This document shows, piece after piece, positions 4,456-53,455 of a stretch of DNA of 64,000 nt. Under the pieces are notes generated by a model. That model saw only the letters and a list, made by a program, of their open reading frames with translations. It was not told the origin of the DNA and searched no databases. Location of the stretch: NCBI GenBank assembly GCA_964517155.1, contig CAZFAZ010000049.1, forward strand, positions 3,012-67,011, written 5' to 3'. The position numbers were made by a program, and so were the translations under genes. This DNA is from an uncultured Thermoplasmatales archaeon (GTDB lineage Archaea; Thermoplasmatota; E2; DHVEG-1). Within the stretch, counting starts at the first letter, position 1; every line of letters begins with the position of its first letter.

Positions 4456-6057
4456 CTATTTTTTACCTATAAAAATAAACTTCCAGTCCTTTTTTTCTCC
4501 CTCAGAATAAATAATTTCAAAGCCTGAATCCCTAAAAAGTTTTTTCACGCTATCTATTGAATAAGCAGTTTTATAGGCATCAATATGATATTTTGCAATA
4601 TCAAAACCACTTCCTTTAAAAACCATATTTATCCTTATAAGAAATAGTTTAAAACTGGAAAAATCCTTGTTAAGCGCTTCAATTACAAATATGCCATCAG
4701 GTTTTAAAATCCGATATATTTCAGAAAAACCGGTCTTAGGATTAGTCCAATAAGTAAGATTAAAGCGACTAACAACGCAGTCAACAGAACTATCTGTAAG
4801 AGGGATTTTTTCAGCAATACCCCTCTTTGTTTCAATAGATGCGTTCTTCTTTGAAATCTTAAGCATTTCTTCAGACGGATCAATTCCGATAATATGTGCA
4901 TTTGGTACTAATTCATTAATTTCCTTTGATAAAAGACCAGGGCCTACGCCGAGATCAACAATAACTGGTTTTTTGATATCTTCTGAAATATTTTTTTTAA
5001 CAATGCCTGCAAGATAAATATACAATTCCGGAAAACGTTTCATATATTGCTCAAAACGAGAATCTGTATTTTTATCCAGTTTAAAACTAAATAATTTTTT
5101 ACTTTCATAAAAAGTCACAAAACTACCAATTATACTTGGTACAATCCAGATAATTACTATACAAAACAAAGAAAAACTTATAACTTGTTCTGCACTAATA
5201 ACTGCTTCACCAGGTATAATTTTTCCATTTATAAACCTAAAATTAGTAAATAGATAAATTAGAGTAAGATCACGGGTGCCTATACCATAATACGAAATTG
5301 GAATAGCTGCAATTATATCTGCAACAGCCATAATTGCTATAAAAAATACAAACTCTATATTTATATCAAAAAGCTTAGCAATAAAAAACAACATAAAATA
5401 TTTCAAAAACCAACCGGCAATAGATAACCCCAGTGGTGCTAAAACATCTTTAAAACCTGGTAAATCCTCATGAAAAGTATCAATTGAAGATTCAAGTCTG
5501 TCTTTTAAACCAAAAAAAATACGAGATCGCACAATCTTTTTAAAAAGAAAGCGAGATTTATGAGATTTAAAAAAGAATAGATAAACAATAAAAGTAATAA
5601 TAAACACTAATAAGATAATTACAAAAAGATAAGGATAAATACTGCTCAAAATAAGTGCGCCTATGGCACCAGTTATAAGCATTGCAAAAAATTCAACTGT
5701 GTTAAAAATAATAATATTTGAAAAACATTTTGGAAGTGGTGTACTGCTTTCTTCTGCTAGATACAAAGCACGTGTGTAGGCACCAAAACCTCCTGGCGTA
5801 ATAAAACCATAGAAATAACCGATAAAAAAATTTTTAAGGCTATACCAAAAACTAACATTTATTTTTTGTTTTTTAAGAAGAAGCTGCCATTCAACGTTGA
5901 CAAGTAAAAGTAAAGGTACAATGATTAAAAAACTCAAGAAAGCATAAATTGGATTAATATTTACAAAAACTCTAAATATCTTTTCAAAATTTAAATTAAA
6001 TATAATTATAAAAAGTAATATCAGTCCGGCAAGTGGTAACAAGCGTTTTAATTTCAT
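4456..6057 (-). CDS. Fusion protein: N-terminal polytopic membrane domain (UPF0104/flippase-like) plus C-terminal class I SAM-dependent methyltransferase
   Basis: About 8 TM helices in first 330 aa; C-terminal VIVDLGVGPGLL (motif I) ... VDCVVSRF methyltransferase motifs. Confidence 0.6.
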   Translation of the reverse strand: MKLKRLLPLAGLILLFIIIFNLNFEKIFRVFVNINPIYAFLSFLIIVPLLLLVNVEWQLLLKKQKINVSFWYSLKNFFIGYFYGFITPGGFGAYTRALYLAEESSTPLPKCFSNIIIFNTVEFFAMLITGAIGALILSSIYPYLFVIILLVFIITFIVYLFFFKSHKSRFLFKKIVRSRIFFGLKDRLESSIDTFHEDLPGFKDVLAPLGLSIAGWFLKYFMLFFIAKLFDINIEFVFFIAIMAVADIIAAIPISYYGIGTRDLTLIYLFTNFRFINGKIIPGEAVISAEQVISFSLFCIVIIWIVPSIIGSFVTFYESKKLFSFKLDKNTDSRFEQYMKRFPELYIYLAGIVKKNISEDIKKPVIVDLGVGPGLLSKEINELVPNAHIIGIDPSEEMLKISKKNASIETKRGIAEKIPLTDSSVDCVVSRFNLTYWTNPKTGFSEIYRILKPDGIFVIEALNKDFSSFKLFLIRINMVFKGSGFDIAKYHIDAYKTAYSIDSVKKLFRDSGFEIIYSEGEKKDWKFIFIGKK

Positions 6058-6135
6058 ATTTTTCTATAAGACTAAATCAATAATGTGTTTATAATTTTTT
6101 TAAAAAACCTAAAAAATAATTTTTTTTTACTATTT

Positions 6136-6762
6136 TTACTTCTTTAATACGCAAATTGATTCCCATCTGCATGTGATAAAAGCATGATTATCCATTTTTC
6201 CAATTATCTCTATCCCCTCCGTTGCGTCTATTATCTTCTTTATTTTATCTTTATAATACTCTTCTCTTATGATTATTTTACTTTTTTTTTGGGAACTTTG
6301 TAGAACATGATTTAATACCTGTATTTTTGGTACAGAACAACCCGATATTATTATAGTGTCAAAAGTGTTAAGAGGATACTTTATTCCGTCGCCGGCATCA
6401 GCTGAAATCTTTTTTTCTAATTTTTTTTGTTTTATTATCTTTCTAGCAGTTTTTATTGATTTTTCATCATGGTCTATTGTTACAATCTTTATATCCTTTA
6501 ACTCTGAGAGGGATAATGCTGTAATTGGATATGTCCCGCAGCCTATATGTAATATTTTTTTTGATTTTTTAAGATCAAACTTATCTATTTCTTTTTTGTA
6601 TTCTCTCCCAACAGTTTTTTCATAAAAGTTTTCTATAACACTTGATGCGCCTGCAAGTCGGTCAATTATGCGCCAGAAACAATTTGTTTTTTTAAGGGTT
6701 ATATCCTCAAATTCAGATGGTTTTATTATTTTATCATCATATGTTTTCTTTGTTTTTTTCAT
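6136..6762 (-). CDS. SAM-dependent methyltransferase-fold protein (possibly nicotianamine-synthase-like)
   Basis: ILHIGCGTYPITALSL ... IVTIDHDEKS pattern resembling Rossmann MTase / NAS-like motifs; weak. Confidence 0.4.
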   Translation of the reverse strand: MKKTKKTYDDKIIKPSEFEDITLKKTNCFWRIIDRLAGASSVIENFYEKTVGREYKKEIDKFDLKKSKKILHIGCGTYPITALSLSELKDIKIVTIDHDEKSIKTARKIIKQKKLEKKISADAGDGIKYPLNTFDTIIISGCSVPKIQVLNHVLQSSQKKSKIIIREEYYKDKIKKIIDATEGIEIIGKMDNHAFITCRWESICVLKK

Positions 6763-6903
6763 ATCTTTCTTTCAGCCTTTTAAATAAAATTTTTATAAAG
6801 ATAGTTTTATGAAACTATATAAGTAGGTTTTATATTTAAATGTTTTAACGATAATCATAAAAAAGATAAACAAGTTATCCCATTTAGGATTAAAAAAAGT
6901 ATT

Positions 6904-7896
6904 TTGGAAAAAGAAAAACATGAAACAAGGAAACTTTATGTGATAGACATGTCAGGAGAGGGCATCGGTTTTGGAAAAGTTATATTGTTTAATGAACACT
7001 TTGTAGTATATGGTATACCTGCAATCGTTTCTGCAATTAGTAAGTATACGCGTGCTAAAGTTGAACCTATTGAAAAATCTGGTTGGACTATTGTTGATAA
7101 TCGTAAAGCAACACCTAGTTATAAAGAGGATAAACTTGAGCAGCAGAAAGACTCTATAAATCGTATGATAAAAAAGATGGGTTTAGATTTATCAAAAAAT
7201 GGTGTATCAATAACATTAGAAGGTAATCTTTATGCTGCAAGTGGGATAGGGGCTAGTGCTGCAAGTTGTGTTGCAATCGCAAGAGCTTTATCACAACATT
7301 TTGAGCTTAATTTTTCAAATGATGAGATAAATGAATTTGCTTATGAGGGCGAAAAAGGATATCATGGAACACCTTCAGGTATTGATAACACTGCATCTAC
7401 TTTTGGAGGTCTTATCTGGTTTGAAAAAGCAGAAGAAAAGATAATGGATAAAATTAACCTTCAAAACCCTGTAGAAATCGTTATCGGTAACACTGGTAAA
7501 GTTGCAAATACTACTACTGCTGTTGCAGGCGTAAGAGAGCGTAAGGAGAAATATCCTGAAAGATACAAAGAAATTTTTGATAGAGCTGAAAACATAGCAT
7601 ATCTTGCTCGTGATGCATTTCAGGATGAAGATTATAAAGAGCTTGGTAAACTTATGAATGAGAATCATAAACTTTTACAGCAGATTGAGGTATCTTCTCG
7701 TGAACTTGATTTTCTCGTCAAACTTGCACGGGATCAAGGAGCATATGGTGCAAAACTTACTGGCGGGGGTCTTGGGGGTAACGTAATAGCATTAACGCCT
7801 GGTAAAGATCTTCAGGAAAGAATTGCTAATGCTTTTGAAAAAGAAGGATTCCAATCTCTTAGAACAAGTATTGGAGTTACGCATAGTGGAGAATAA
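6904..7896 (+). CDS. mvk: Mevalonate kinase (GHMP kinase family)
   Basis: GHMP N-terminal region and ATP-binding glycine-rich motif (SGIGASAASCVA), C-terminal LTGGGLGGNVIAL; first gene of mevalonate cluster. Confidence 0.8.
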   Translation: MEKEKHETRKLYVIDMSGEGIGFGKVILFNEHFVVYGIPAIVSAISKYTRAKVEPIEKSGWTIVDNRKATPSYKEDKLEQQKDSINRMIKKMGLDLSKNGVSITLEGNLYAASGIGASAASCVAIARALSQHFELNFSNDEINEFAYEGEKGYHGTPSGIDNTASTFGGLIWFEKAEEKIMDKINLQNPVEIVIGNTGKVANTTTAVAGVRERKEKYPERYKEIFDRAENIAYLARDAFQDEDYKELGKLMNENHKLLQQIEVSSRELDFLVKLARDQGAYGAKLTGGGLGGNVIALTPGKDLQERIANAFEKEGFQSLRTSIGVTHSGE

Positions 7897-19925: not shown

Positions 19926-20240
19926 TTAATATGTTTTTACAGCGGTTCCAAAAGCAATTAGTTCTGCTGCTCCTTGCATTGTTTGTGCTGTTGCATAACG
20001 CATGCCAATTATTGCATCAGCACCTATTTTTTCTGCATCGGCAATCATTCGTTGCATTGCAGTTCTGCGTGATTCTTCCATAAGTTCTGTATATGATTTT
20101 GATTCCCCGCCGATAAGGTTTCTTCCAGCGGCTCTTAAATCTTTACCTATATGTTTCATTTGTACACAGCAGCCAAATACGACACCAAGGACTTCTTTTA
20201 CCTCACGACCAGGTATATTTTCTGTTGTTATAACCATCAT
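19926..20240 (-). CDS. YbjQ/DUF74 family protein (UPF0145)
   Basis: 104 aa; pattern ITTENIPGREVKEVLGVV ... IGADAIIGMRY ... AFGTAV typical of YbjQ family. Confidence 0.7.
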   Translation of the reverse strand: MMVITTENIPGREVKEVLGVVFGCCVQMKHIGKDLRAAGRNLIGGESKSYTELMEESRRTAMQRMIADAEKIGADAIIGMRYATAQTMQGAAELIAFGTAVKTY

Positions 20241-20262
20241 ATATTTATCCCTTCAACGTTTT

Positions 20263-20478
20263 TTATTTATAAATATATCCACATTTACTACAACTATATG
20301 TTTTTCCATCAAATCTAAGTTTTGGATTACCACACTCTGGACAAGTCCCAAGTACTCTTTCTTCCAGAGCACGTATTCTTTTAAGCTCTTTTTCTGCAAG
20401 CTGGGATAAGTTGATCCAAGGGTTTTTTTTCCACCATTCCCAGGTTTCTTCATCAAGTGTTATCGTTACTTTTTTCAT
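20263..20478 (-). CDS. Small ribbon-helix-helix-like protein with C-terminal C4 zinc ribbon
   Basis: N-terminus KKVTITLDEETWEWWKKNPWINLSQLAEKELKRI (beta-strand/helix/helix, paralogous to two other RHH ORFs in window); C-terminal CPECG...CSKCG. Confidence 0.5.
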   Translation of the reverse strand: MKKVTITLDEETWEWWKKNPWINLSQLAEKELKRIRALEERVLGTCPECGNPKLRFDGKTYSCSKCGYIYK

Positions 20479-20483
20479 ATTTT

Positions 20484-20678
20484 TTATCCTGTTGGTATTT
20501 CAACTATTAAACCAACTAATATCAATATGATTCCAATTATTAGTGCAATAATTGCTTTTAATCTTGGTCCCCCAGGTGCATTAATTATTCTTGCAAATCC
20601 GGGCATAAAAAATGCTAGTATTCCGATTACTGCGGTTATTGCTCCTGTAATTATAAAAACTGTATTTACAACTGTCAT
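20484..20678 (-). CDS. Small two-TM membrane protein
   Basis: 64 aa, two hydrophobic helices; sits between the two YbjQ genes on same strand. Confidence 0.4.
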   Translation of the reverse strand: MTVVNTVFIITGAITAVIGILAFFMPGFARIINAPGGPRLKAIIALIIGIILILVGLIVEIPTG

Positions 20679-20686
20679 AATAAGCC

Positions 20687-21001
20687 TTATTTTAGTTTAA
20701 CTGCTGTCCCGTATGCAAGTATCTCTGCAGCTCCACCCATTATTGCACTGGTCATGAAACGTACGTTTATTACCGCATCAGCACCTATTTCTTCTGCTTT
20801 TTTCTGCATGCGACTTAATGCAATTTCTCTGGACTCTGCAAGCATTTCTGTGTATTCTTTTATTTCTCCCCCTGCCATATGTCTGAAACCTGCTTTTATG
20901 TCTTTTCCAATGCTTTTTGCCTGTATTGTGTTTCCTCTCACTAGACCTAATATTTCTTTTATTTCCTTTCCTGTTACAAAATCTGTATTTACAATTATCA
21001 T
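20687..21001 (-). CDS. YbjQ/DUF74 family protein (second paralog)
   Basis: 104 aa; same architecture as 19926-20240 paralog (IVNTDFVTGKEIKEILGLV ... IGADAVINVRF ... AYGTAV). Confidence 0.7.
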   Translation of the reverse strand: MIIVNTDFVTGKEIKEILGLVRGNTIQAKSIGKDIKAGFRHMAGGEIKEYTEMLAESREIALSRMQKKAEEIGADAVINVRFMTSAIMGGAAEILAYGTAVKLK

Positions 21002-21237
21002 GGTTTCAAATCCTCCCTTTTTATATCTTTCATAGTTTCTTTTGTGTCTTTCTTTTGTTCAATTACAATTGATATTATCAGGATTATTAAACCTAGAAAT
21101 ATTAATCCAAGTATTGCTCCAGATATTATATCAAGTGCTTCTATTATTGCTGAAAAATCTTGCATTATGCCATATATCATCAACAGAATTATTCCTGTTA
21201 CAAACATGGTCAGACCTATTGTTTTTCCATTATCCAT
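20998..21237 (-). CDS. Small two-TM membrane protein
   Basis: 79 aa; stop overlaps start of YbjQ paralog (ATGA overlap); C-terminal charged tail. Confidence 0.4.
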   Translation of the reverse strand: MDNGKTIGLTMFVTGIILLMIYGIMQDFSAIIEALDIISGAILGLIFLGLIILIISIVIEQKKDTKETMKDIKREDLKP

Positions 21238-21404
21238 ATTAACACATCCTAATACGTATTAGCACGTATATATATATGTTTTGACCCGTATTTAAAAATA
21301 TCGTTTGTTTTGCCTATTTGCAAAACTATTAAAATCATTTATGCAAAGACTAATTATTGTTCTTTAAAAAAATAAAAAAGAAGGAGAAAGGATGAAATGC
21401 AAGA

Positions 21405-21824
21405 TCATTTTTTTCTTTTCAAGACAAGTAATGCAGTCAATAATACAAATACAGTGCCTGCGATTATCGCTGCTTGAATTCCAACATCTAAACCTGCAGT
21501 TTTTATTTCTTCTGAAGATTTTGCATCTGAAGCCGCAGTATCTACAAGCTCATCACTTTCCTGATTTTCAAGTATCTGTATAATCACTTCATCGTCGTCT
21601 AATGGGCTGGGTGCTATAACTAAGATTTCTTCAGACTCGAGATTTGGTTTGATCAATAGTTTTTCATCTTCTAAATCTAAAAATACTTCTTCATTTATTG
21701 TCTTTGGGATGGTTTCTTCTGCAGACGCTGAAAGGCCCACGCCAATTACAACAGCTCCTACTATCATTATAATTATTGTTTTTTTCATGTTCATATTTTT
21801 TTCTTCACCTTTGAATCCCCGCAT
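21405..21824 (-). CDS. Secreted acidic protein with C-terminal TM anchor and basic tail
   Basis: Signal peptide, Asp/Glu-rich body, C-terminal IIAGTVFVLLTALLVLKRKK. Confidence 0.5.
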   Translation of the reverse strand: MRGFKGEEKNMNMKKTIIIMIVGAVVIGVGLSASAEETIPKTINEEVFLDLEDEKLLIKPNLESEEILVIAPSPLDDDEVIIQILENQESDELVDTAASDAKSSEEIKTAGLDVGIQAAIIAGTVFVLLTALLVLKRKK

Positions 21825-21989
21825 AATAAAAGTTCTTTATGTATTGTCAGAAAATGTTCGGGAAAAACCAAACAATTTTTGCACTTATAAGGGTTAAAAA
21901 GATATAAAAACAGATTAAACATTACTTTAAAATATTTAATTAATGATAAAATTTAGAATAACTATTTGTGGCGTATGTTAGGGGGTTTT

Positions 21990-22733
21990 ATGGGTAAAAC
22001 AATATCTTTAAAGCTAAGTTCTTCTGAAGAAGAAATAATAAATAATATGTTAATTCAAGGTATTTCTCCTAGCAAACTTCTTAGATCTGCTTTGTCAAAC
22101 TATTTGGATTTGATTAATGAAAAGGTAAACCAAAAGGTAAACCTTTTTCAACAGGGGGAAAATTCATTTTTTGATGAAAAGGTAAACCAAAAGGTAAACC
22201 TTTTCAACAGGAGTGAGGTAAACCAGGTAAACCAAAAGGTAAACCGCTCTAAGGAGAAGGAGGTAAACCTTGAGGTAAAACAAAATGATTTTTTTTCTGA
22301 AAATAAGGAGGAAAAAAAGGTAAACCAAAAGGTAAACCTGGTAAACCAATTTGAGGAAAAATATCTAAATCTTTATATCGAGCAGCTTAAAGATAGAGTA
22401 AATCAACTTGAAAAAGAATCTCAAGAATTAAAAGATAAAAATAAGATTTCAGAGCAATTCCTAGTAAATAATTATCAGATAATACAAGATGAATACTATA
22501 ATTTGGTAAAAGACACTATCAAAAGACTTGATGATAAATTCGACCGTATCATGTTTTATCTGGAAGGATCAGTTAAAAAACCTGATTATCATGTTACTTT
22601 AAAATCAGATGTTAAAGAAAAGCATAATGAGGATAACTCATCTAAGTTTATAAATAAAAAAGTAACCGAAGAATCAGGTATATCTGTTAAAAAACCTAGG
22701 AAAGGATGGATTTTTCAGATGTATAGAATGTAG
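21990..22733 (+). CDS. RHH-type DNA-binding protein with internal VNQKVN repeat region and C-terminal coiled coil
   Basis: Start refined to ATG 21990 (MGKTISLKLSSSEEEIINNM, SD AGGGGG upstream); N-terminus matches ribbon-helix-helix pattern; central region encoded by GGTAAACC octamer array. Confidence 0.55.
   Translation: MGKTISLKLSSSEEEIINNMLIQGISPSKLLRSALSNYLDLINEKVNQKVNLFQQGENSFFDEKVNQKVNLFNRSEVNQVNQKVNRSKEKEVNLEVKQNDFFSENKEEKKVNQKVNLVNQFEEKYLNLYIEQLKDRVNQLEKESQELKDKNKISEQFLVNNYQIIQDEYYNLVKDTIKRLDDKFDRIMFYLEGSVKKPDYHVTLKSDVKEKHNEDNSSKFINKKVTEESGISVKKPRKGWIFQMYRM
22124..22347 (+). repeat. Array of 11 perfect GGTAAACC octamers (plus 1 variant) inside RHH gene
   Basis: Perfect copies at 22124, 22136, 22181, 22193, 22217, 22226, 22238, 22262, 22319, 22331, 22340; common unit GGTAAACCAAAAGGTAAACC (12-bp phasing); all same strand and same reading phase. 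Confidence 0.85.
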
Positions 22734-22808
22734 TTTTTTTAAAAAACTAAAATATTTATATTTGATAATAGCTATTAGTCTGTTGGTTAACCTTGAGGAG
22801 GGGTATGC

Positions 22809-23246
22809 TTGGGAAAAGTTATTGCATTAAAATTAACAGATAAAGAGGAACGAATTATTAACAAATTAAATGAGGAAGGGATATCCAATAGTGAACTTAT
22901 TAGAGATGCCCTTTGGTATTATTTTAGAACAGTAAATGATGATATGAACCCTCAGGTAAACCCGGTAAACCAAAAGGTAAACCCTGAGGTAAACCATTCT
23001 TCTCAGGAGAAAAATGATAAAATTTTCTATGAATATATCTTTCGTTTGAAAAATGAGATAAACCAGTTACGTGAAGAAAGCAATAAATTTCAAAAGAATT
23101 TTCAGGAGGAAATCCGAAATATTCATAGTCTTTTTGATGAAGGTTTATCTGCAGTTAATCTAACAAAAAAAGAACCAATTATCAGGAAAGAAAACGATTT
23201 TTACGATGTTCATAATGCAATAGATGAATTTTTAAGGAAAAAATAA
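22809..23246 (+). CDS. RHH-type DNA-binding protein, paralog of 21990-22733 (TTG start)
   Basis: MGKVIALKLTDKEERIINKLNEEGISNSELIRDAL parallels N-terminus of upstream paralog; apparent TTG start 8 nt after GGAGGAGGGG; contains 4 GGTAAACC octamers. Confidence 0.5.
   Translation: MGKVIALKLTDKEERIINKLNEEGISNSELIRDALWYYFRTVNDDMNPQVNPVNQKVNPEVNHSSQEKNDKIFYEYIFRLKNEINQLREESNKFQKNFQEEIRNIHSLFDEGLSAVNLTKKEPIIRKENDFYDVHNAIDEFLRKK
22955..22995 (+). repeat. Array of 4 GGTAAACC octamers inside second RHH gene
   Basis: Copies at 22955, 22964, 22976, 22988, same strand and phase as array in first paralog. Confidence 0.85.
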
Positions 23247-23312: not shown

Positions 23313-24011
23313 ATGATTATTGTAAAAAACCTCACTAAGAGATATGGGAAAATAACAGCACTTAACAATGTTAGTTTTAATTTTGATGATTCAAAAGTAA
23401 TTGCTATAATGGGTGAAAATGGAGCAGGAAAAAGCACTCTTTTAAAAATTTTAACAGGAATACTAACATTTGATTCAGGAGAAGTTTTAATCGATGATTT
23501 TTCGATTATAAACGATTCGGTAAAAGCAAGAGAAAAACTTGGATATCTTCCTGAGATGCCAGAAATGTATGAGCGACTAACTGGTAGAGAATTCTTATTT
23601 TACATATCTTCACTTAGAAAAATAAAAAATGCAGAAGAAAAAATAAACCAGATTACAAAAAACATCGACATCTATGATTTTTTAGATTATGAAATAGGAA
23701 CCTATTCAAAGGGAATGAAACAAAAAATCTCAATTACTTCAACTATACTTCACAATCCAGCTAATCTGTTGCTTGACGAGCCGGTTTATGGTCTTGATCC
23801 TCTTACTGCTAAAAAAATCCAAGAGTTTATAAAACAACAAAAAGGCACAACAATTATTGCAACACATTCAACGCAGCTTGTCGAACAAGTTGCAAATCAG
23901 GTATACATTATTGAGCGCGGGAAAGTCATGATGTTTGATGAAGTAAAAAAACTTCTTAAAATATATGGCAGTATAGAAGAAGCATATTTTGCATCAAAGA
24001 AAGGTAAATAA
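23313..24011 (+). CDS. ABC transporter ATP-binding protein
   Basis: Walker A GENGAGKST, signature YSKGMKQKIS, Walker B LLLDEPVYGLD. Confidence 0.8.
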   Translation: MIIVKNLTKRYGKITALNNVSFNFDDSKVIAIMGENGAGKSTLLKILTGILTFDSGEVLIDDFSIINDSVKAREKLGYLPEMPEMYERLTGREFLFYISSLRKIKNAEEKINQITKNIDIYDFLDYEIGTYSKGMKQKISITSTILHNPANLLLDEPVYGLDPLTAKKIQEFIKQQKGTTIIATHSTQLVEQVANQVYIIERGKVMMFDEVKKLLKIYGSIEEAYFASKKGK

Positions 24012-25408
24012 TGTTTGAAACAACAAAAACCATACTTAAAAACAACACAAGAAATCTTTTATCAAAGATTAAAGAAGCACCTATACTTTACATTTTTTTT
24101 ACAATTATGATTATATCTTCAATTTTTTTATTTGCTTTTGTAACACTTTATTTTCAGATAGTTGAAACAGGTTTTAAGTTAAATATACAAGATGTTTTTT
24201 CTTTAGTTTTTTTTGCAATGATGATTAAATCATCAGTTGATTTTTATAACTTTTTTGTTAAATCAAATGAAGTTACTTATGCTCTTTGTACACCGGTTAA
24301 GCATAAAAAAACGATATCGGAGATATTTATTGCAGTTTTTCTGACAAATATTATAATTTGGTTTTCTTTTTCAACGCTTTATGTTTTAGGTCTTGTTTTT
24401 TTTAGAATTAATATAAATTATCCAGATCTGTATATTTTCTTTAATTTAGGTGTAATCGCCGCAATATGTCTTGGCAGCAGTATCTGTATAAATTTTTTCT
24501 CAGGTTTAAGATTAAGATTGCTTCCGATGGCTATCATATTAGTTTTTTATCTATATTTACAAGAGCCGTTGTTTATTGTTTTAACTTTACCGGTAGCAGT
24601 TTTGCATATTATCTGGAGTCTTAGTCATGCAAAAGAATCGCATCAGAATATACGTCGGAAAGAAAGAATAAATAATGTAGCGCAGAATAAAACACGAACT
24701 ATTATATGGGCAATTTTTCATAAAGAAACAACAATTCTCTGGAGAGATAGGCTTCTTTCAAGTTTTATCTCGATGTCTGCTTTTACAGGTTTTGCTACAG
24801 GTTATTTATATCTTTATGGTGATGAAATTTTTATACCTGAATCGCTAAGGGTCATGTATGGTGAGTTTTTACCTTCATTGTTTATATTTTTAGGTGTTTT
24901 TGTAGTAGTAATTTATACTGCTGTTTTTCCATCGCTTGTTCTTTTTTTAAATGAAGAAAAAACTATGTGGATACTCAGGCATATTCCAATTAAAAATCAA
25001 ACATTGATTATAGGTAAACTATCGGCTCTGATTTTATGTTTTATCGCAGGAATACCTTTCATTCCTTTTATACTGATTTTTGTAGGATTTGAAAATTTAT
25101 TGTATATTATTTGGTTTTTAGTTTTTGCGTATTTTGCAAGTGTAATAATCGCACTCCCGATCGGGGTAAAGTATGTTGGTAAAAAATCTGATATAATGCT
25201 ACTTTATAGTGTAACAATGCTTCTTTTGTTTGTTTTGGGAATAGCATCCTTTGCAAGTGTTTTTATGTGGAAAAATTTAGTTTATCCGATTATCCCTTCT
25301 GTATTAATTATTCTTTTTGAATTTGTGTTTTTGTATGTTTCGATTAAAATATCAGATAGAGTTTTAGCTTTTAGAAAGCCGCGTAGTTTAGATCTGAATA
25401 AATTATAG
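24011..25408 (+). CDS. Polytopic membrane permease partner of ABC ATPase (ABC-2-like exporter)
   Basis: 465 aa, 10 or more TM helices; start overlaps ATPase stop (ATAATG). Confidence 0.55.
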   Translation: MFETTKTILKNNTRNLLSKIKEAPILYIFFTIMIISSIFLFAFVTLYFQIVETGFKLNIQDVFSLVFFAMMIKSSVDFYNFFVKSNEVTYALCTPVKHKKTISEIFIAVFLTNIIIWFSFSTLYVLGLVFFRININYPDLYIFFNLGVIAAICLGSSICINFFSGLRLRLLPMAIILVFYLYLQEPLFIVLTLPVAVLHIIWSLSHAKESHQNIRRKERINNVAQNKTRTIIWAIFHKETTILWRDRLLSSFISMSAFTGFATGYLYLYGDEIFIPESLRVMYGEFLPSLFIFLGVFVVVIYTAVFPSLVLFLNEEKTMWILRHIPIKNQTLIIGKLSALILCFIAGIPFIPFILIFVGFENLLYIIWFLVFAYFASVIIALPIGVKYVGKKSDIMLLYSVTMLLLFVLGIASFASVFMWKNLVYPIIPSVLIILFEFVFLYVSIKISDRVLAFRKPRSLDLNKL

Positions 25409-25809: not shown

Positions 25810-26112
25810 ATGGCTTGTATAACTATAACTGTTGAAGAATCATTTAAAGAAAGGCTATCAAAATTTCCTTGGGTCAATTGGTCAGAGATAGGTAGAGAAG
25901 AAGTTTTAAAAAGATATATTTTTGAAAAATATATCAAAACTAAAAAACTTACAAAAGAAGAAACTGATTTTTGTGAAAAAAGTGACTGGCATCCTGTTGA
26001 TGAGCTGCCATTACGCGAAGAGTTCATTGAAGAAATCAAAAAAGTTGCAAAGGGCAAATATCATAGATACAAATCTATTGAAGATTTAAAAAGAGATACC
26101 AGTGATGGATAG
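25810..26112 (+). CDS. RHH-like putative antitoxin/regulator (100 aa)
   Basis: ITITVEESFKERLSKFPWVNWSEIGREEVLKRYI paralogous to neighbouring RHH ORFs. Confidence 0.5.
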   Translation: MACITITVEESFKERLSKFPWVNWSEIGREEVLKRYIFEKYIKTKKLTKEETDFCEKSDWHPVDELPLREEFIEEIKKVAKGKYHRYKSIEDLKRDTSDG

Positions 26113-26127
26113 TTAATGTATAATTAG

Positions 26128-26388
26128 GTGGTAAGTACAGATTTGCGAAAATTTTTAAGTAAAATATCTAAAAAAAATAAGATTTTTTATGATAAAATAT
26201 TGAAAAAAATTAGCGAAATAATAAGTTCTGAAAATATTGAACATTATAAGAATTTGAAATATGGTTTAAAAAATTTTAAAAGAGCACATATTGGACATTT
26301 TGTTTTAATCTTTAGATATGATAAAAGATCAAACACAATTTTTTTCGATAATATCAAACATCATGATTTTGCATACAGAAAAAAGTAA
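26128..26388 (+). CDS. RelE/ParE-superfamily toxin-like protein
   Basis: 86 aa, C-terminal KRAHIGHFVLIFRYDKRSNTIFFDNIKHHDFAYRK matches RelE/YoeB-type beta-sheet motif. Confidence 0.5.
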   Translation: MVSTDLRKFLSKISKKNKIFYDKILKKISEIISSENIEHYKNLKYGLKNFKRAHIGHFVLIFRYDKRSNTIFFDNIKHHDFAYRKK

Positions 26389-26401
26389 AATTAATTTTTA
26401 G

Positions 26402-26423
26402 TATTTTTATTAATACTTTTAAT
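26402..26423 (+). repeat. 22-nt direct repeat copy 2 (TATTTTTATTAATACTTTTAAT)
   Basis: Perfect match to 25458-25479; also preceded by related AAAATTAAT segment in both copies. Confidence 0.8.
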
Positions 26424-26545
26424 AAACCTATTAATAAATATATAAGCTAATATTTTTATAACTAATCCATAGTCTCTTTGATAGAATAAAAAAGCAAAAT
26501 GATAAACTTAATATACTATGATATACTTAAGTATAAGATGGTATA

Positions 26546-26788
26546 ATGAATGCGACAACAATAAAAATCCATAAAGATACAAAAGCACAAATCGACCAAT
26601 TTAGAGAATACAAAAACGAGAGTTACGATGAAGTATTAAGAAAAATAATATATATAGTAAAATCAATCAAAAAGAAGCCAGATTTATCTAAAGAAGCAAT
26701 AAAATCAATTGAAGCGGCTAGGAAAAGAATGGATAAAGGGCATTTTTATAATGAAGAAGAGGCTAAAAAAATATTAGGCCTTGAATAG
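26546..26788 (+). CDS. RHH-type antitoxin
   Basis: 80 aa; TTIKIHKDTKAQIDQF N-terminal strand/helix; immediately upstream of RelE gene (TAGATG junction). Confidence 0.55.
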   Translation: MNATTIKIHKDTKAQIDQFREYKNESYDEVLRKIIYIVKSIKKKPDLSKEAIKSIEAARKRMDKGHFYNEEEAKKILGLE

Positions 26789-27058
26789 ATGTATGAAATA
26801 ATATTTGACAAAAATGCAATAGAATTTCTTAACAAACTTGATTATAAACTTAAAGAAAGAATTTTTATAAAAATTATTTCAACTAAAGAAAAACCATTTA
26901 GATATTTTCAAAAACTTGTTTACAGGGATGGATATAAACTAAGAGTAGGTAATTATCGGGTAATAGCAGATATTGACAAAAACTCATTAAAGATTAAAAT
27001 CCGTCTAATAATGCATAGAAAAAATATTTACGAAAAATTACAAAGAAAAGTTTACTAG
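26789..27058 (+). CDS. relE: RelE/StbE-family toxin (mRNA interferase)
   Basis: 89 aa; GNYRVIADIDKNSLKIKIRLIMHRKNIY is the classic RelE C-terminal motif. Confidence 0.7.
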   Translation: MYEIIFDKNAIEFLNKLDYKLKERIFIKIISTKEKPFRYFQKLVYRDGYKLRVGNYRVIADIDKNSLKIKIRLIMHRKNIYEKLQRKVY

Positions 27059-47865: not shown

Positions 47866-50800
47866 TTGAACAACATGGGTGGGGATTTTTCAAATAACAT
47901 AGCAATAAGTAAAAACATGCAACAATACTTTGCAACTCTACAAGAGCAAATAGATGAATGTTACAAAATAGCAGTACAAGCAAGAAAAAAAGGATTAGAT
48001 CCAGAATACAACGTGGAAATACCACAAGCATTAGACCTTGCTGCTCGTGTAGAAGAACTAGTCGGACCAAAAAACATAGCGCCAAAAATACGTGAAACAA
48101 CAAAAAAAATACAAAACCGTGAACTCGTAAGCCTGGAACTTGCAAAATATATTGCAAGCGGCAAAAAATATAAATTCAAAACGACAGAACAAGCATTAGA
48201 TCAAGCAATAAGAACCGGTCTTGCAATACTTACAGAAGGCGTTCTAGTAGCACCACTTGAAGGAATAGCAGATGTAAAACTAGGGGCAAACAAAGACGGG
48301 ACAAACTATGTAGACCTTTATTTTTCAGGACCAATCCGCTCAGCAGGCGGAACTGGTCAGGCGATGAGTGTACTAATCGCAGATGTAGTAAGACGCGAGC
48401 TAAAAATAGGTAGATATCAACCAACAGATGGAGAAATAGAACGATACAAAGAAGAAATACCACTATACAAAAGAGCACAACACCTGCAGTATACTCCAAA
48501 TGTAGATGAAATAGATAAAATTGTAAGAAATTGTCCTATATGTATAAATGGAGAAGGTACAGAAGATGAAGAAGTAACAGGATACCGAGACCTGCCAAGG
48601 ATATCAACAAACCGACTTAGAGGCGGAGCATGTCTAGTAATAGCAGAAGGATTATGCTTAAAAGCACCAAAAATAATAAAACATGTAAAAAAACTCAGAC
48701 TCAAAGGATGGGATTTTTTAGATATATTTACACATAAAGAACAAACAGAAAATGAGAAAACAAATGGTATATCAGAAATACTTCCCTCAACAAAATACAT
48801 AGGTGAAGTAATAGCAGGGAGACCAGTATTTAGTCACCCTTCAAGAAAAGGAGGGTTCAGGTTAAGATACGGGCGAGCAAGAACCGCAGGGCTTGCATCA
48901 ACCGCAGTAAACCCTGCATCAATGTATGTACTAGATGAATTCATAGCTGTAGGAACACAACTAAAAACAGAAAGACCGGGTAAAGGAACAATAGGTACAC
49001 CCTGCACAACAATAGAAGGACCAATAGTACTTTTGCAAAACGGAGACTTAGTTCAATTCAATCATCCGAAAGAAATAAAAAAAATAGATATAAAAAAAAT
49101 TATAGACTTAGGTGAAATACTAATACCATTTGGTGAATTCATAGAAAACAACTCAATATTACCTGATTCAAGTTATGTCTACGAATGGTGGATACAAGAT
49201 CTACAAAAAAAACTAAAAACATTACCAGAAAAATACGACTTAAAAAATGTAGCTGAATCAGATAAAAAAACTTTTGAAAAAATAAAACAGCAAACAGATG
49301 AAGATATAAATCTAGAAAAACCAACATGGGGACAAGCATTAAACTTGTCAAAAAAATATGATATACCGCTTCATCCAAATTTCAATTTATTTTGGCATGA
49401 TCTAAAAACAGAAGATATCATAAAACTTGCAAAATATATAATTGAAAATGCAAGTTTTTCAGAAGAAAAACTAATTCTTCCAATAAATGATGAAATAAAA
49501 GAAATACTAATTGAACTAGGAGTATTACACAAACTAAGAGAAGAAAACTTTATTGTAGAACACTATGCAAAACCATTGATTTATTGTTTAGGGTTAGAAA
49601 TAAAAGAAAGTAAAATAATCAAAACAGAACGATTTACAAAAACTAACAAAAATGAAACAAACCCTGTAAAACTTGTATCAAATTTATCAAATATAAAAAT
49701 AAACCCGCGTGCACCTTTTAGAATAGGAACACGCATGGGTAGACCCGAAAAAGCAGCAGCAAGAAAAATGCGGCCGCCACCACATGTACTTTTTCCAATT
49801 GGAAACTATGGCGGAAATCAAAGATTAATAAGAAATGCAGCAGCCGCAGGAATAATAGAAGTTGAAGCAGGAACAAGAATTTGCCCGAAATGTAACAAAA
49901 AAACATACCGGCTTTTCTGCAGTTGTGGGGCGCATACAGAAATAGGAAATGGGCGAATAGAGCCACAGCAAATAAACCTTGCAGATGAACTAATAAAAGC
50001 TCAAAAATTCATAAAAGAAAGAATACTGCCTGAAACAATAAAAGGAGTAATAGGAACAATATCAAAACATAAAACACCGGAGCCCTTGGAAAAAGGGATA
50101 CTGCGAGCAAAACATAATGTGTATGTGTTTAAAGATGGAACAATTCGCTTTGATATGACCGATGCACCACTTACACATTTCAAACCAAGAGAAATACATG
50201 TTTCCATAGATAGATTACAGGAACTTGGGTATAAAACAGATTATCTGGGGGAAGAACTTGTTAGTGATGAACAAATATGTGAACTAAAGGTACAAGATGT
50301 AATAATTTCAAAAGCCTGTGCTGAATATTTTACTCAAGTTGCAAGATTCTTAGATGATTTACTTGTAAAATTTTATGATATGAGTCGTTTTTATAATATA
50401 CGTAAACTTGAGAATTTAACAGGACACTTGACTGTTGGTCTTGCGCCTCATACTTCCGCAGGGTCGCTCTCTAGAATAATTGGTTTTACAGATGCTCAAG
50501 TATGTTACTCTCATCCATTTTATCATGCAGCGAAAAGAAGGAATTGTCTTTCCGGAGATACTGAAATTTTAGTATCAAATTCAGATGATATGTTTAATAG
50601 ATGTTCTTTAAGTGATTTGTATAAGGAAATTAATTCTTCTGAAACTGTTGTAGACGATTTTGATACAAAAATGAAAAAGATATTTGATGTTAAAACGTTA
50701 TCTTTAAATCCTTTAGATGGAAGAAATGAAGTCAAAAAAATAAAATCAATTATTAAATCAAAATCTCCTAAACATCTTATTAAAGTTAAGTTATCCTCGG

Positions 50801-52755
50801 GTAGGACATTTGTTGCTTCACCGTATCATAATTTGCTTGTTTTATCTGATGGAAGGATTATTCGTAAGAAAGCAGTTCAATTACAAAAAAATGACATGTT
50901 TTTTGTATCAAAAGATGTAAATCTTGCTGAAAAGGATATTAAAGAAATCGACCTATTTGAAGAGGTTATCAATCTTGGTTATAAAGAAATTGTAGTACGA
51001 AATATAAGAGATTTTGTACAAAATTGTGTAGATTATTTAGGTGGATTAAAATCGGCTTCAGAAAAACTGAAATTAAATAAGAAAACTTTTTCGAATTATA
51101 TCTATAGAGATAGCATACCTTTTGAAGTACTCGATAAATTGACAAAAATTAGTAAGAAAGCTTTAAAAGATGTGCCCGAAAACTGTTATTTAGGTGTTAA
51201 AAGAGATCATGCAAAAATACCTAGAATAATAAAAGTCGATAATCATCTAATGCGTTTACTTGGTTATTATATTTCAGAGGGTCATGCAAGAAAGAAGGAT
51301 AAAGAATGTTATCAACTTGGATTTGCATGTACTGAAAAAGAAATTAGAGATGATATTGTTGAATGTATAAAGTATACATTTGGTATAAGGCCGTATATTA
51401 CAAAAAAAAGTGTATCAATATGTAATCATCTGGTTTATGATTTTTTTGTAAATGTATTAAAAGTTGGTAAGAAAGCAAAGAGTAAACAAATTCCAACCAA
51501 ATTTACATTGCTTCCAAAAAATAAGATAAAGCATCTTTTAAGAGCCTATTTTTCAGGGGATGGTTCTGTTGAAAAAAACAGACTGCATATAACATGTTCT
51601 TCTGCAAATAAACTTCTTTTGAGAGATATCGGCTTTCAGCTACTAAGATTTGGCATCTTTTATCGAATGAAAAAGGAAGAAAGAAAACCTTCAGGTATTG
51701 CAAAAAAATATTATGATAAAAAAGGAATCACCACTACTTTTAAACTTTATTATTTATCGATTCGCTCATCATATGCAAAAAAATTCTGTGAAGAGATTGG
51801 TTTTGCGCTTACAAGAAAACAAGTACGAATTAAGTCTTTATTGTCAAAAGAAAGAAAGCCAAGAGTTGAGTCTTTTGGTGATTTTGTAATTGATAAAATT
51901 AAAGATATTTCTTCTATAAAATCAGATTCAGATTATGTTTATGATATAGAAGTAGAAGAGCTACATAACTTTATGATAAACGATTTCTTAATAACAAATA
52001 ACTGCGATGGCGATGAAGACGGGCTCATGCTTTTATTAGATGCGCTTCTTAACTTTTCACATTCTTACATCCCTGATAAACGCGGTGGTAAAATGGATTT
52101 GCCTTTGATTCTTACCACTCGTATCGATCCTTCTGAAGTAGATAAAGAAGCACATAATATTGATACACTTTCTCGTTATCCACTTGATTTTTATAATGCA
52201 ACTCTTGTTCATGAGCATTCTAAAGAACTTGAGAAAAGTATGGGGCTTGTAGCATCTCGTCTTGGCACAGAGCTGCAGTATGAGCATTTTGGTTTTACAC
52301 ATGATACAGAGGATATTTCACAGGGCCCTGTTATGTCTAATTATAAGACTTTAAAGACTATGATGGATAAGATGAATGCACAGCTTAATTTGGCTGCTAA
52401 AATTCGTGCTGTTGATGAAGCTGATGTTGCATATAAGGTAATTGAGAGGCATTTTTTACCAGATATGCTTGGTAATCTTCGTGCTTTTAGTAAGCAGTCT
52501 GTTCGTTGTCCTAGTTGCAATATCGTTTATCGTCGTCCTCCTCTTCAGGGTGTTTGTACTATTTGTAAAGGTAAACTTACTCTTACGGTTCATGAGAAAT
52601 CTGTGAAGAAGTATCTTGAAATTTCAAAGGAGGTTGCTCAGCGTTATAATATTTCTCCTTATTCTCGTCAGCGTATCAAGCTTGTTGAAAAAGCTATTGA
52701 TTCACTTTTTATAAGTGATAAGGTTAAAACTACTAAACTTGATGATTTTTTTTAA
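47866..52755 (+). CDS. dp2: DNA polymerase D large subunit (DP2) containing one intein
   Basis: DP2 N-terminal region, Zn-binding Cys clusters, catalytic NCDGDEDG motif interrupted by intein; C-terminal CPSCN...CTICKG zinc finger. Confidence 0.9.
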   Translation: MNNMGGDFSNNIAISKNMQQYFATLQEQIDECYKIAVQARKKGLDPEYNVEIPQALDLAARVEELVGPKNIAPKIRETTKKIQNRELVSLELAKYIASGKKYKFKTTEQALDQAIRTGLAILTEGVLVAPLEGIADVKLGANKDGTNYVDLYFSGPIRSAGGTGQAMSVLIADVVRRELKIGRYQPTDGEIERYKEEIPLYKRAQHLQYTPNVDEIDKIVRNCPICINGEGTEDEEVTGYRDLPRISTNRLRGGACLVIAEGLCLKAPKIIKHVKKLRLKGWDFLDIFTHKEQTENEKTNGISEILPSTKYIGEVIAGRPVFSHPSRKGGFRLRYGRARTAGLASTAVNPASMYVLDEFIAVGTQLKTERPGKGTIGTPCTTIEGPIVLLQNGDLVQFNHPKEIKKIDIKKIIDLGEILIPFGEFIENNSILPDSSYVYEWWIQDLQKKLKTLPEKYDLKNVAESDKKTFEKIKQQTDEDINLEKPTWGQALNLSKKYDIPLHPNFNLFWHDLKTEDIIKLAKYIIENASFSEEKLILPINDEIKEILIELGVLHKLREENFIVEHYAKPLIYCLGLEIKESKIIKTERFTKTNKNETNPVKLVSNLSNIKINPRAPFRIGTRMGRPEKAAARKMRPPPHVLFPIGNYGGNQRLIRNAAAAGIIEVEAGTRICPKCNKKTYRLFCSCGAHTEIGNGRIEPQQINLADELIKAQKFIKERILPETIKGVIGTISKHKTPEPLEKGILRAKHNVYVFKDGTIRFDMTDAPLTHFKPREIHVSIDRLQELGYKTDYLGEELVSDEQICELKVQDVIISKACAEYFTQVARFLDDLLVKFYDMSRFYNIRKLENLTGHLTVGLAPHTSAGSLSRIIGFTDAQVCYSHPFYHAAKRRNCLSGDTEILVSNSDDMFNRCSLSDLYKEINSSETVVDDFDTKMKKIFDVKTLSLNPLDGRNEVKKIKSIIKSKSPKHLIKVKLSSGRTFVASPYHNLLVLSDGRIIRKKAVQLQKNDMFFVSKDVNLAEKDIKEIDLFEEVINLGYKEIVVRNIRDFVQNCVDYLGGLKSASEKLKLNKKTFSNYIYRDSIPFEVLDKLTKISKKALKDVPENCYLGVKRDHAKIPRIIKVDNHLMRLLGYYISEGHARKKDKECYQLGFACTEKEIRDDIVECIKYTFGIRPYITKKSVSICNHLVYDFFVNVLKVGKKAKSKQIPTKFTLLPKNKIKHLLRAYFSGDGSVEKNRLHITCSSANKLLLRDIGFQLLRFGIFYRMKKEERKPSGIAKKYYDKKGITTTFKLYYLSIRSSYAKKFCEEIGFALTRKQVRIKSLLSKERKPRVESFGDFVIDKIKDISSIKSDSDYVYDIEVEELHNFMINDFLITNNCDGDEDGLMLLLDALLNFSHSYIPDKRGGKMDLPLILTTRIDPSEVDKEAHNIDTLSRYPLDFYNATLVHEHSKELEKSMGLVASRLGTELQYEHFGFTHDTEDISQGPVMSNYKTLKTMMDKMNAQLNLAAKIRAVDEADVAYKVIERHFLPDMLGNLRAFSKQSVRCPSCNIVYRRPPLQGVCTICKGKLTLTVHEKSVKKYLEISKEVAQRYNISPYSRQRIKLVEKAIDSLFISDKVKTTKLDDFF
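50545..52002 (+). mobile_element. Intein (486 aa) with LAGLIDADG homing endonuclease inserted in DP2 catalytic motif
   Basis: Begins CLSGDTEILV after extein ...AAKRRN; ends ...VYDIEVEELHNFMINDFLITNN followed by extein CDGDEDG; LAGLIDADG blocks LLGYYISEGH and LRAYFSGDGS. Confidence 0.85.
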
Positions 52756-53109: not shown

Positions 53110-53455
53110 TTGTTTGGCGATAGGTGTGGGATAGACTGGGGAGGTAGGCGTTCCCTGTTATCAGAAATCGCCTTTATGCTGAGGTCGAACCCAAGAGGCG
53201 ATGCGTCGAGCATTTATTGATCCATTTGTTAACTATGAGACCTTGTCCTTTGGGATTAGAGGTGATGGCTTCATATAACTGGAGAGTTATATGTCCATCT
53301 TAGCTGCGGGAACCGGGTGAGGCACGGAAGTGAGCAGCCTTACCGCAGACTGCTGATGCTCGAAGGGTTAACGGGGTCGAGAAGGCATTTGGGTAGTCAA
53401 TATTTGCCACGTGCACCCACTCGCGGAGTTCTCACACCCGCTAAAAATACATTTA
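53110..53455 (+). ncRNA. Signal recognition particle RNA (archaeal 7S RNA)
   Basis: GC-rich structured island in AT-rich genome; domain IV/helix 8 motif GGCACGGAAGUGAGCAGCCUUACCGCAGA at 53319-53347 closely matching conserved SRP RNA GGUCCGGAAGGAAGCAGCC...GCAGA; 5' GGTGTGGG and 3' CACACCC ends complementary; several internal hairpins. Confidence 0.7.

Follow-up and report, generated by a model that had tools for sequence, protein, structure and literature searches.

An octamer array conserved as DNA inside the coding sequence of an archaeal ribbon-helix-helix gene, and its probable recognition by the encoded protein

Two adjacent paralogous genes of an uncultured Thermoplasmatales archaeon, both predicted to encode ribbon-helix-helix (RHH) proteins, contain fifteen copies of the octamer GGTAAACC within their coding sequences. 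This raises the question whether the copies are a repeated peptide or a DNA element embedded in an open reading frame (ORF). We examined the 64-kb stretch that carries the genes (assembly GCA_964517155.1, contig CAZFAZ010000049.1, positions 3,012 to 67,011), called the window here, and compared it with about 50 homologous loci (L-numbers) and with homologous proteins (P-numbers). The first gene (gene 1) was located at 21990..22733 and the second (gene 2) at 22809..23246, both on the + strand. In our study, the repeat was found to be conserved as DNA rather than as peptide. We consider it likely that the octamer (GGT-W-N-ACC) is the double-stranded site of the protein's own RHH N-domain, in a self-binding and probably autoregulatory nucleoprotein module.

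The octamer arrays and their conservation as DNA

An exact count gave 15 copies of GGTAAACC in the window, all on the + strand, and dinucleotide-preserving shuffles of the window gave a mean of 0.96 copies and a maximum of 5. Eleven exact copies and one decayed copy, GGTAAAAC (22274-22281), form the array at 22124..22347 (+), which encodes the linker of gene 1 (residues 45-119). The other four form the array at 22955..22995 (+), in the linker of gene 2 (residues about 49-62). All 15 copies are in one codon phase, G-GTA-AAC-C, and are read as Val-Asn. The recount agreed with a preliminary description of the window, in which 11 perfect copies and 1 variant had been placed in the first gene and four in the second, all on the same strand and in the same phase. 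The 12-bp phasing given there was present, but it was not the only one; inside the clusters the copies follow one another at 9 or 12 bp, and the repeats are also arranged in a higher-order unit of 45 bp. The decayed copy is read as EVKQ in the window, whereas P0001, a 97%-identical homolog, contained the intact EVNQ. The array of gene 2 was restricted to one clade (the window, L008, L009 and P0057). A perfect palindrome, GGTTAACC, which had been overlooked earlier, was found at 22785..22792 in the 75-bp spacer between the genes, 17 bp 5' of the TTG of gene 2; it is the sole copy in the 64 kb, where 0.48 were expected. No octamer was present upstream of gene 1 in the window, and the relaxed form GGTWNACC occurred elsewhere in the window as scattered singles only.

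The array was conserved as DNA in 42 of the 42 orthologs. Gene 1 of these distinct orthologs contained 326 sites of the form GGTNNACC, a count in which the sites are not phylogenetically independent, and every one of them was in the same codon phase. Gene 1 carried 11.9 sites per kb. The 253 kb of flanks had 0.24 per kb, which equals the random expectation of 1 in 4096; the site is not common in this flanking DNA. Beyond one locus per window, no octamer clusters were found in the flanks.

The codon statistics were taken from 420 V[N/D/Y] dipeptides in the linkers of the 42 distinct orthologs, and all comparisons gave p <1e-10. Valine was encoded by GTA in 86% of cases (background 24%) and asparagine by AAC in 97% (background 36%), aspartate by GAC in 81% (background 24%) and tyrosine by TAC in 81% (background 31%). 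The following codon began with C in 95% and the preceding codon ended in G in 81%, against backgrounds of 22% and 17%, respectively. In 398 of the 420 cases, VN was followed by Q, H, R, L or P; these residues differ in their chemistry, and all that unites them is a codon beginning with C. In the clade of 210-amino-acid proteins, third-codon positions inside the octamer were invariant in 62.5% of cases and those outside in 30.5% (p=0.003). The preliminary description had argued for selection on the DNA from the exact octamer and its codons, and the codon and flanking bases fixed across the 42 orthologs bear this out. The homologs do not keep a peptide repeat with varied codons; the synonymous bases are held, and it is the linker peptide that varies, among VN, VD and VY.

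The VY form is the reverse complement of the site in the same frame. The reverse-oriented sites GGTTTACC and GGTCTACC are read as Val-Tyr; for example, AAG-GTC-TAC-CAC holds GGTCTACC, the reverse complement of GGTAGACC. The pseudo-palindromic site changes its orientation by the two central bases alone, which explains why every copy stays in one frame. The most divergent members also keep the site, as P0038 contained nine copies of GGTAAACC and P0035 contained seven of GGTAAACC and two of GGTTAACC. P0039 has the VN peptide with GTT in 8 of 8 valine codons, giving seven GGTTAACC and one AGTTAACC. A G precedes the site in 7 of these 8 copies, and a C follows it in every one. The GGTTAACC variant makes up the in-ORF arrays of L054 and a part of that of L058. 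P0017 is an all-VYQ member, and its site, judged from the protein sequence only, may be GGTATACC or GGTTTACC.

These observations bear on the explanation that the array is a pure protein repeat, or a neutral repeat kept uniform by slippage or gene conversion, and has no function at the DNA level. Such a repeat would agree with the single reading frame of all the sites, with the 45-bp and 12-bp higher-order tandem units, which indicate recent duplication, and with the copy number, which differs among close relatives. However, selection on the peptide cannot explain the fixed synonymous bases, the rule of G before and C after the site, the mixture of Q, H, R, L and P after VN, the reverse-complement VY copies or the copies found in non-coding leaders. 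Homogenisation within genes, in turn, cannot hold one octamer across lineages at about 35-40% protein identity. We regard this explanation as very improbable.

Covariation with the ribbon-helix-helix domain and non-coding copies

The protein that recognises the octamer is most likely its own product, through the RHH domain, as the ribbon strand and the site vary together. In one clade the ribbon strand reads SLRL and not SLKL (K8R), and there TGTAAACC was found in 36 of 43 sites. Seven of the eight reversed copies of this clade read GGTTTACA; here the change lies at the other end, which is what a double-stranded site should show. In the second SLRL lineage (L057) the outer bases of the site were relaxed. 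The C-terminal part of L057, which places it in a different subclade, was 77-80% identical to that of the SLKL loci L016 and L020 and about 61% identical to that of the first SLRL clade. In both SLRL lineages, identity was 48-55% in the N-domain and 75-80% in the C-terminal part. In P0039, the strand KVIGLKL (T4V with S6G) accompanies changed central bases of the site. Such changes agree indirectly with an RHH dimer that would insert an antiparallel beta-ribbon into the major groove of the pseudo-palindromic site.

The exchange of the N-domain pointed in the same direction. Where the C-terminal module of gene 1 is joined to a KTISLKL-type N-domain, at least 4 repeats were present in 35 of 35 members (median 10), whereas repeats were found in 0 of 6 full-length members in which the same module is joined to another N-domain. 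The KTISLKL-type N-domain precedes VN arrays in other architectures as well. The association of the octamer with this N-domain, on which the earlier idea of a binding-site array inside the regulator's own gene depended, is seen across the family.

Copies were also found outside the coding sequence. The leaders of the 210-amino-acid clade contained four to six GGTTTACC between a conserved box, resembling a TFB recognition element and TATA box (BRE/TATA), and the start codon. They were located at conserved offsets of about -125, -114, -53, -42 and -32, with a spacing of 10-11 bp, which is one helical turn; the conservation of these leader sites was marginal (p=0.07). The leader of L006 contained two perfect palindromes, GGTAGACC-nnn-GGTCTACC, at the offsets of the leader sites of the 210-amino-acid clade. 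Coding DNA forces the lattice to 9 or 12 bp and therefore to an average of 10.5 bp, comparable to the 10-11 bp of the non-coding copies.

With the leader copies at hand, an element acting in the RNA has to be weighed, in which mRNA hairpins, pairing of the leader with the coding sequence (GGUUUACC with GGUAAACC) or an RNA-binding protein would control translation or stability. The RNA of the window array folds better than shuffles (z=-4.74), and the leader copies of the 210-amino-acid clade are the exact complement of the in-ORF copies. The z-score is non-discriminating, however, as pseudo-palindromic GGU...ACC units pair with themselves trivially, and the 15 copies of the window are all in one orientation, with none in the leader. 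The clade with TGTAAACC and GGTTTACA breaks the outer pair and shows no compensatory change, while the central bases are conserved though they would be unpaired. The non-coding copies keep the helical spacing of DNA at 10-11 bp, and the site co-varies with a DNA-binding ribbon strand. Control by the RNA is accordingly given little credence here, and recognition of the double-stranded octamer by the RHH domain is preferred.

Promoter-like elements were found 5' of both genes. A candidate archaeal BRE/TATA box of gene 1, AAAAAGATATAAAA, is located at 21896..21909 (+) and resembles the AAAAAATATAAGTAC of the homolog loci, and a candidate TATA box of gene 2, ATATTTATATTT, is located at 22752..22763 (+), where the homolog spacers contain a conserved aCATTTATATA-type box; both are assigned from conservation alone. 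A scan for sigma-70 promoters and terminators is inapplicable to archaea and was uninformative. The BRE/TATA-like AAAAAATATAAGTAC box was strongly conserved across clades and present in nearly all loci (L005:5790-5845, L006:5800-5850), and in most of them the equivalent box was located about 45-200 bp 5' of gene 1. A conserved segment, GATTCTT..G.GAGGATGATGG, comes after the box in the 210-amino-acid clade; its GATGA-like core may be either a small-RNA box or an element close to the promoter.

A detached array was found in the MAG locus L007 (also 5800-6339 and 6442-6915). There the N-domain of the gene 1 homolog is of another kind (PTSIRLD), and its ORF contains no array. Downstream of its gene 2, at L007:6979-7090, GTAAACC and GGTTAACC copies were present at 12-bp spacing in a segment with no ORF of at least 60 amino acids. 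The frame of this array still reads KVNQMVNK...KVNPMVNQKVNQK, and the array may be the relic of a coding array or a free-standing array of sites.

The encoded proteins and the chromosomal locus

Gene 1 begins with ATG and encodes a protein of 247 amino acids. From the N-terminus, it is predicted to consist of an RHH domain, the array-encoded disordered linker and a long coiled-coil helix, and it ends in a conserved tail. The N-domain (21990..22121, +; residues 1-44) contains the ribbon strand K-T-I-S-L-K-L. The long helix, probably a coiled coil, is encoded at 22348..22571 (+; residues about 120-194) and includes a conserved KRLDDKFDRIMFYLE motif. The tail RKGWIFQMYRM is encoded at 22698..22730 (+); alignments gave the family consensus KKGWxFQMYRM, with R246 and M247 invariant. 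In the AlphaFold model the array-encoded segment lies exactly between the RHH domain (residues 1-44) and the confident part of a helix at 102-194, which had a predicted local distance difference test score (pLDDT) >90 for residues 120-190. The coiled coils that had been proposed for the C-terminal parts are in agreement with the model of gene 1, where the long helix, probably a coiled coil, is predicted to be about 75 residues. The array-encoded segment had pLDDT <50 at residues 52-103 and is predicted to be disordered; the C-terminal 48 residues are predicted to be disordered as well, and they end in the invariant ...RM tail. As this segment encodes a disordered linker with a largely free amino-acid sequence, the octamers fit inside the ORF, and with few amino-acid constraints on the linker the constraint on the DNA dominates there.

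Gene 2 encodes a paralog of 145 amino acids in which the same type of RHH N-domain is joined by a short linker to a coiled coil, with D.H..IDEFLKK as its tail. The two proteins were 42% identical over the N-terminal 45 residues and the repeat regions. The TTG start that had been assigned to gene 2 is plausible, since a GGAGG is located about 8 bp 5' of it and the orthologs begin with TTG, GTG or ATG at the same residue.

An RHH fold of the N-domain is supported, with a beta-alpha-alpha arrangement of about 45 residues. Against curated RHH families, all N-domain matches were below the gathering score (best E about 1e-3); these sub-threshold matches were to DUF6290 in 16 of 19, RHH_1 in 11 of 19, NikA-like in 4 of 19 and CcdA in 1 of 19. 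A profile search of the N-domain against PDB gave CopG family matches at E=0.75 and 0.83, and that of the C-terminal module gave generic coiled-coil noise only (E >0.2). Pfam and NCBIfam scans of both proteins found no family above threshold.

The family is small. One search gave 39 homologs of gene 1, and 69 cluster representatives were found among 1.84 billion proteins; the members are annotated in the sources as hypothetical proteins. The genomic relatives were only uncultured Thermoplasmata/Thermoplasmatales metagenome-assembled genomes (MAGs) and one MAG labelled Methanobacteriota, and a further 46 loci came from metagenomes. Among 2.9 million viral contigs, no protein relatives and no contig with three phased octamers were found. 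Clustering of the flanking ORFs showed that the pair of gene 1 and gene 2 is kept in nearly all loci. The window, L001 and L002 had the upstream families 14, 6 and 15 and the downstream tyrosyl-tRNA synthetase and adenylosuccinate lyase (purB) in common, although gene 1 of L001 and L002 was only about 40% identical to that of the window. The recurrent neighbours at 50 loci were peptidase C25, a radical S-adenosylmethionine/helix-hairpin-helix protein, a major facilitator superfamily protein, a response regulator, flavodoxin, tRNA synthetases (including arginyl-tRNA synthetase) and purB. Judged from gene order, the locus is a stable, vertically inherited chromosomal gene pair beside housekeeping genes.

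In L008 (880-1683), which is the metagenome locus most identical to gene 1 (67%), the frame stops after 129 amino acids, within or just after the repeats. The tblastn similarity continues to residue 247, so that a frameshift, a pseudogene or an assembly error in the repeats is indicated. Its gene 2 (P0032) contained repeat units nearly identical to the gene 1 repeats (NQNDFFSENMEEKKVNQKVNL), which suggests an exchange between the arrays of the two genes. L058 (1268-2077) contained an array-bearing RHH gene (the short-form P0035) immediately followed by a KaiC-family ATPase, with a small RHH_1-like ORF before it; it is the sole case seen with a neighbouring nucleoside triphosphatase (NTPase).

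The window also encodes PolD DP1 and DP2, MCM, elongation factor 2, ribosomal protein S7 and HerA, contains an archaeal signal recognition particle RNA at 53124-53437, which fixes the domain as Archaea, and has a guanine-plus-cytosine content of about 32%; judged from these features it is ordinary euryarchaeal chromosome. The tRNA and Rfam scans found nothing at the locus. The DP2 gene (47866-52755; 1629 amino acids) contains an intein with a LAGLIDADG homing-endonuclease domain, based on Intein_splicing and LAGLIDADG_3 matches at residues about 935-1376. The minus-strand genes 5' of the locus (19926-21824) include two YbjQ_1 paralogs, putatively heavy-metal-binding, at 19926-20240 and 20687-21001, interleaved with genes for small predicted membrane proteins. 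They are followed by an ORF of 139 amino acids with a C-terminus weakly like an LPXTG anchor (a sub-threshold NCBIfam match).

Downstream, an ATP-binding cassette (ABC) transporter at 23313-25408 and two tandem ParE-type toxin-antitoxin pairs at 25810-27058, between the ABC exporter and tyrS, were present, as the preliminary description had reported. The first pair (25810-26388) consists of a weak DUF2683-like match and ParE_toxin, and the second (26546-27058) of DUF7557 and ParE_toxin. The ABC exporter recurs in few loci only, and the ParE pairs are absent from the syntenic loci and therefore look like a lineage-specific insertion. An antitoxin of type II was rejected as the identity of gene 1, as the conserved neighbour is a paralogous RHH gene and not a toxin, and a coiled coil of roughly 75 residues is predicted; the ParE toxins 3 kb downstream come with antitoxins of their own, and these pairs do not accompany the locus in its relatives.

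It had also been supposed that the locus might be the control or partition region of an integrated element. This was not supported, as the housekeeping synteny is conserved and no partition ATPase is nearby. Neither the 64-kb window nor the genes that recur around 50 loci contained a partition NTPase (ParM, ParA/SegA or TubZ), and no genes for ParA, ParM, Orc1 or SMC were found near the locus. The conserved synteny and the lack of viral relatives rule against a mobile or integrated element in general, with the exception of P0039, which stands beside a D5-type primase-helicase. The P0039 locus, L054 (499-969 and 4577-5969), is a 12.6-kb contig with D5_N/DUF5906 primase-helicase and many small ORFs, and here the module is probably part of a mobile element.

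A replication-origin module of the lambda O type was considered in this context. The iterons inside the ORF would form an origin at which the protein initiates replication or controls copy number, and the module would be the remnant or a working part of a replicon like that of a plasmid or virus. The architecture resembles that of lambda O with ori-lambda (PMC7466680), and the divergent P0039 lies on the contig with the primase-helicase. The typical members, however, are chromosomal and share synteny with the genes for tRNA synthetases and purB. No replication proteins flank the locus, no viral relatives or viral arrays were found, and the protein has no helicase-loading or initiator domain. 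An origin of this type appears extremely improbable.

A different function would be a chromosomal landmark, that is, a centromere-like or nucleoid-positioning site, where the RHH-bound array builds a unique complex and autoregulation is a side effect. The coiled coil and the KKGWxFQMYRM tail would then tether the locus to a partner, which might be a filament, the membrane or a component of cell division or segregation. Several observations agree with such a role, namely the 5-13 sites at about helical spacing, as in the ParR/parC iteron arrays, the single locus per window with no other clusters in the flanks, the stable vertical inheritance, and the array of L007, which persists detached from the RHH ORF. 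The conserved long coiled coil and the invariant tail have no role in a simple repressor; with no homolog of these parts found, and no other targets in the window and flanks, there is room for a landmark role. On the other side, the conserved neighbourhood contains no NTPase or cytomotive partner gene, and no homolog of known function was detected for the C-terminal module. Members that have another N-domain retain this module without any array, and the module therefore does not need the array. A landmark is unlikely as the primary function, but it deserves some weight beside the autoregulatory module.

Proposed mechanism, known systems and meaning

In the mechanism we propose, one RHH dimer would bind each octamer, and neighbouring dimers would stand about one helical turn apart and bind cooperatively, with added avidity from oligomerisation of the coiled coil. 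The site would very probably be read by the N-domain of the adjacent paralog also. In this way about 230 bp of the gene, lying in its 5' third, would be covered by its own product. In some lineages, with further sites that follow the TATA box and precede the start codon, the leader or the region of transcription start would be covered too. We infer that the outcome would be a steep negative autoregulation, by blocking of transcription initiation or elongation. In the window, the single palindrome GGTTAACC at 22785..22792, between the TATA-like box of gene 2 and its TTG start codon, is a candidate operator for the paralog.

Several points weigh against this mechanism. The covariation of strand and site comprises two or three events, and the single frame shared by the 326 in-gene sites indicates that peptide-level constraint or in-frame duplication also contributes. 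As there is no octamer 5' of gene 1 in the window, repression at the promoter level would depend there on roadblocking inside the ORF, and we know of no demonstration of roadblocking of archaeal RNA polymerase at such arrays. A protein with its own gene as the sole detectable target needs a further output, and the conserved coiled coil and C-terminal tail suggest a role beyond autoregulation.

Tandem or inverted pseudo-palindromic boxes at about one turn, read by RHH dimers, are classical for MetJ, CopG, omega and ParR. The archaeal locus has a tandem array of short repeats and an RHH domain, which would bind it. The arrays of ParR/parC, omega and ParG are intergenic, plasmid-borne and located beside a ParM or ParA NTPase gene, whereas the archaeal array is inside an ORF, is chromosomal and has no NTPase nearby. 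MetJ with its met boxes, Arc, Mnt and CopG are small repressors with promoter operators outside their own coding sequences and with no coiled coil or tail. CdrS/CdrL, aCcr1 and SegB are likewise archaeal RHH DNA-binding proteins. CdrL, which occurs in Halobacteria only and carries a double zinc ribbon at its C-terminus, binds essentially one genomic locus; CdrS shares synteny with ftsZ2 (PMC7439475). An identity with CdrS or CdrL was rejected, as no ftsZ was found in the window or the homolog loci and the protein has no zinc ribbon. SegB is paired with the ParA-like SegA (PMC8682754), and no such partner was found at the locus.

The closest architecture is that of lambda O, in which the iteron-encoding region is a flexible interdomain linker. 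The sites for the N-domain of lambda O lie in the middle of its own gene, and extra iterons add residues to the protein (PMC7466680). The archaeal gene is similar in having an array for its own N-domain inside its own ORF, with the binding here predicted. Lambda O differs in that it initiates phage replication; its DNA-binding fold is a different one, its iterons are 19 bp long, an AT-rich region for unwinding adjoins them, and P is its partner protein. The archaeal protein is a chromosomal RHH and coiled-coil protein with 8-bp sites and no replication genes nearby. In Bacillus subtilis and others, a parS within spo0J/parB places the site of a chromosome-organising protein inside its own gene. 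That case differs in its single 16-bp site, its helix-turn-helix ParB, its ParA/Soj partner and the lack of an array dictating a repeat peptide.

A literature search for the octamer gave primers only, and a search for RHH sites in a protein's own coding sequence found no description of the gene 1 family. Lambda O already shows that the sites of an N-domain can lie midway in the gene that encodes it, and parS in spo0J is known as a single in-gene site. What appears to be new is the combination of a small chromosomal archaeal family of RHH and coiled-coil proteins, a presumed operator array that is universally embedded in the linker-coding segment and dictates a repeat peptide, and the lineage-specific co-evolution of strand and site.

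If the proposed recognition is true, the locus would be an unusually clean case of natural dual coding, in which the VNQ, VDQ and VYH repeats are dictated by the DNA specificity of the protein's own N-domain. Changes of the ribbon strand could then be paired with changes of the site, giving a readout of RHH specificity and its evolution from sequence only. It would also be a warning that low-complexity linkers can be the footprints of DNA elements. If the landmark were the true function, the location of the site in the gene would guarantee the joint inheritance of site and binder. With the recognition as proposed, the principle of lambda O would reach from phage origins to a conserved chromosomal archaeal module, and the finding would draw attention to the coiled-coil and tail module of uncultured Thermoplasmata, whether it serves autoregulation alone or the tethering of the locus.

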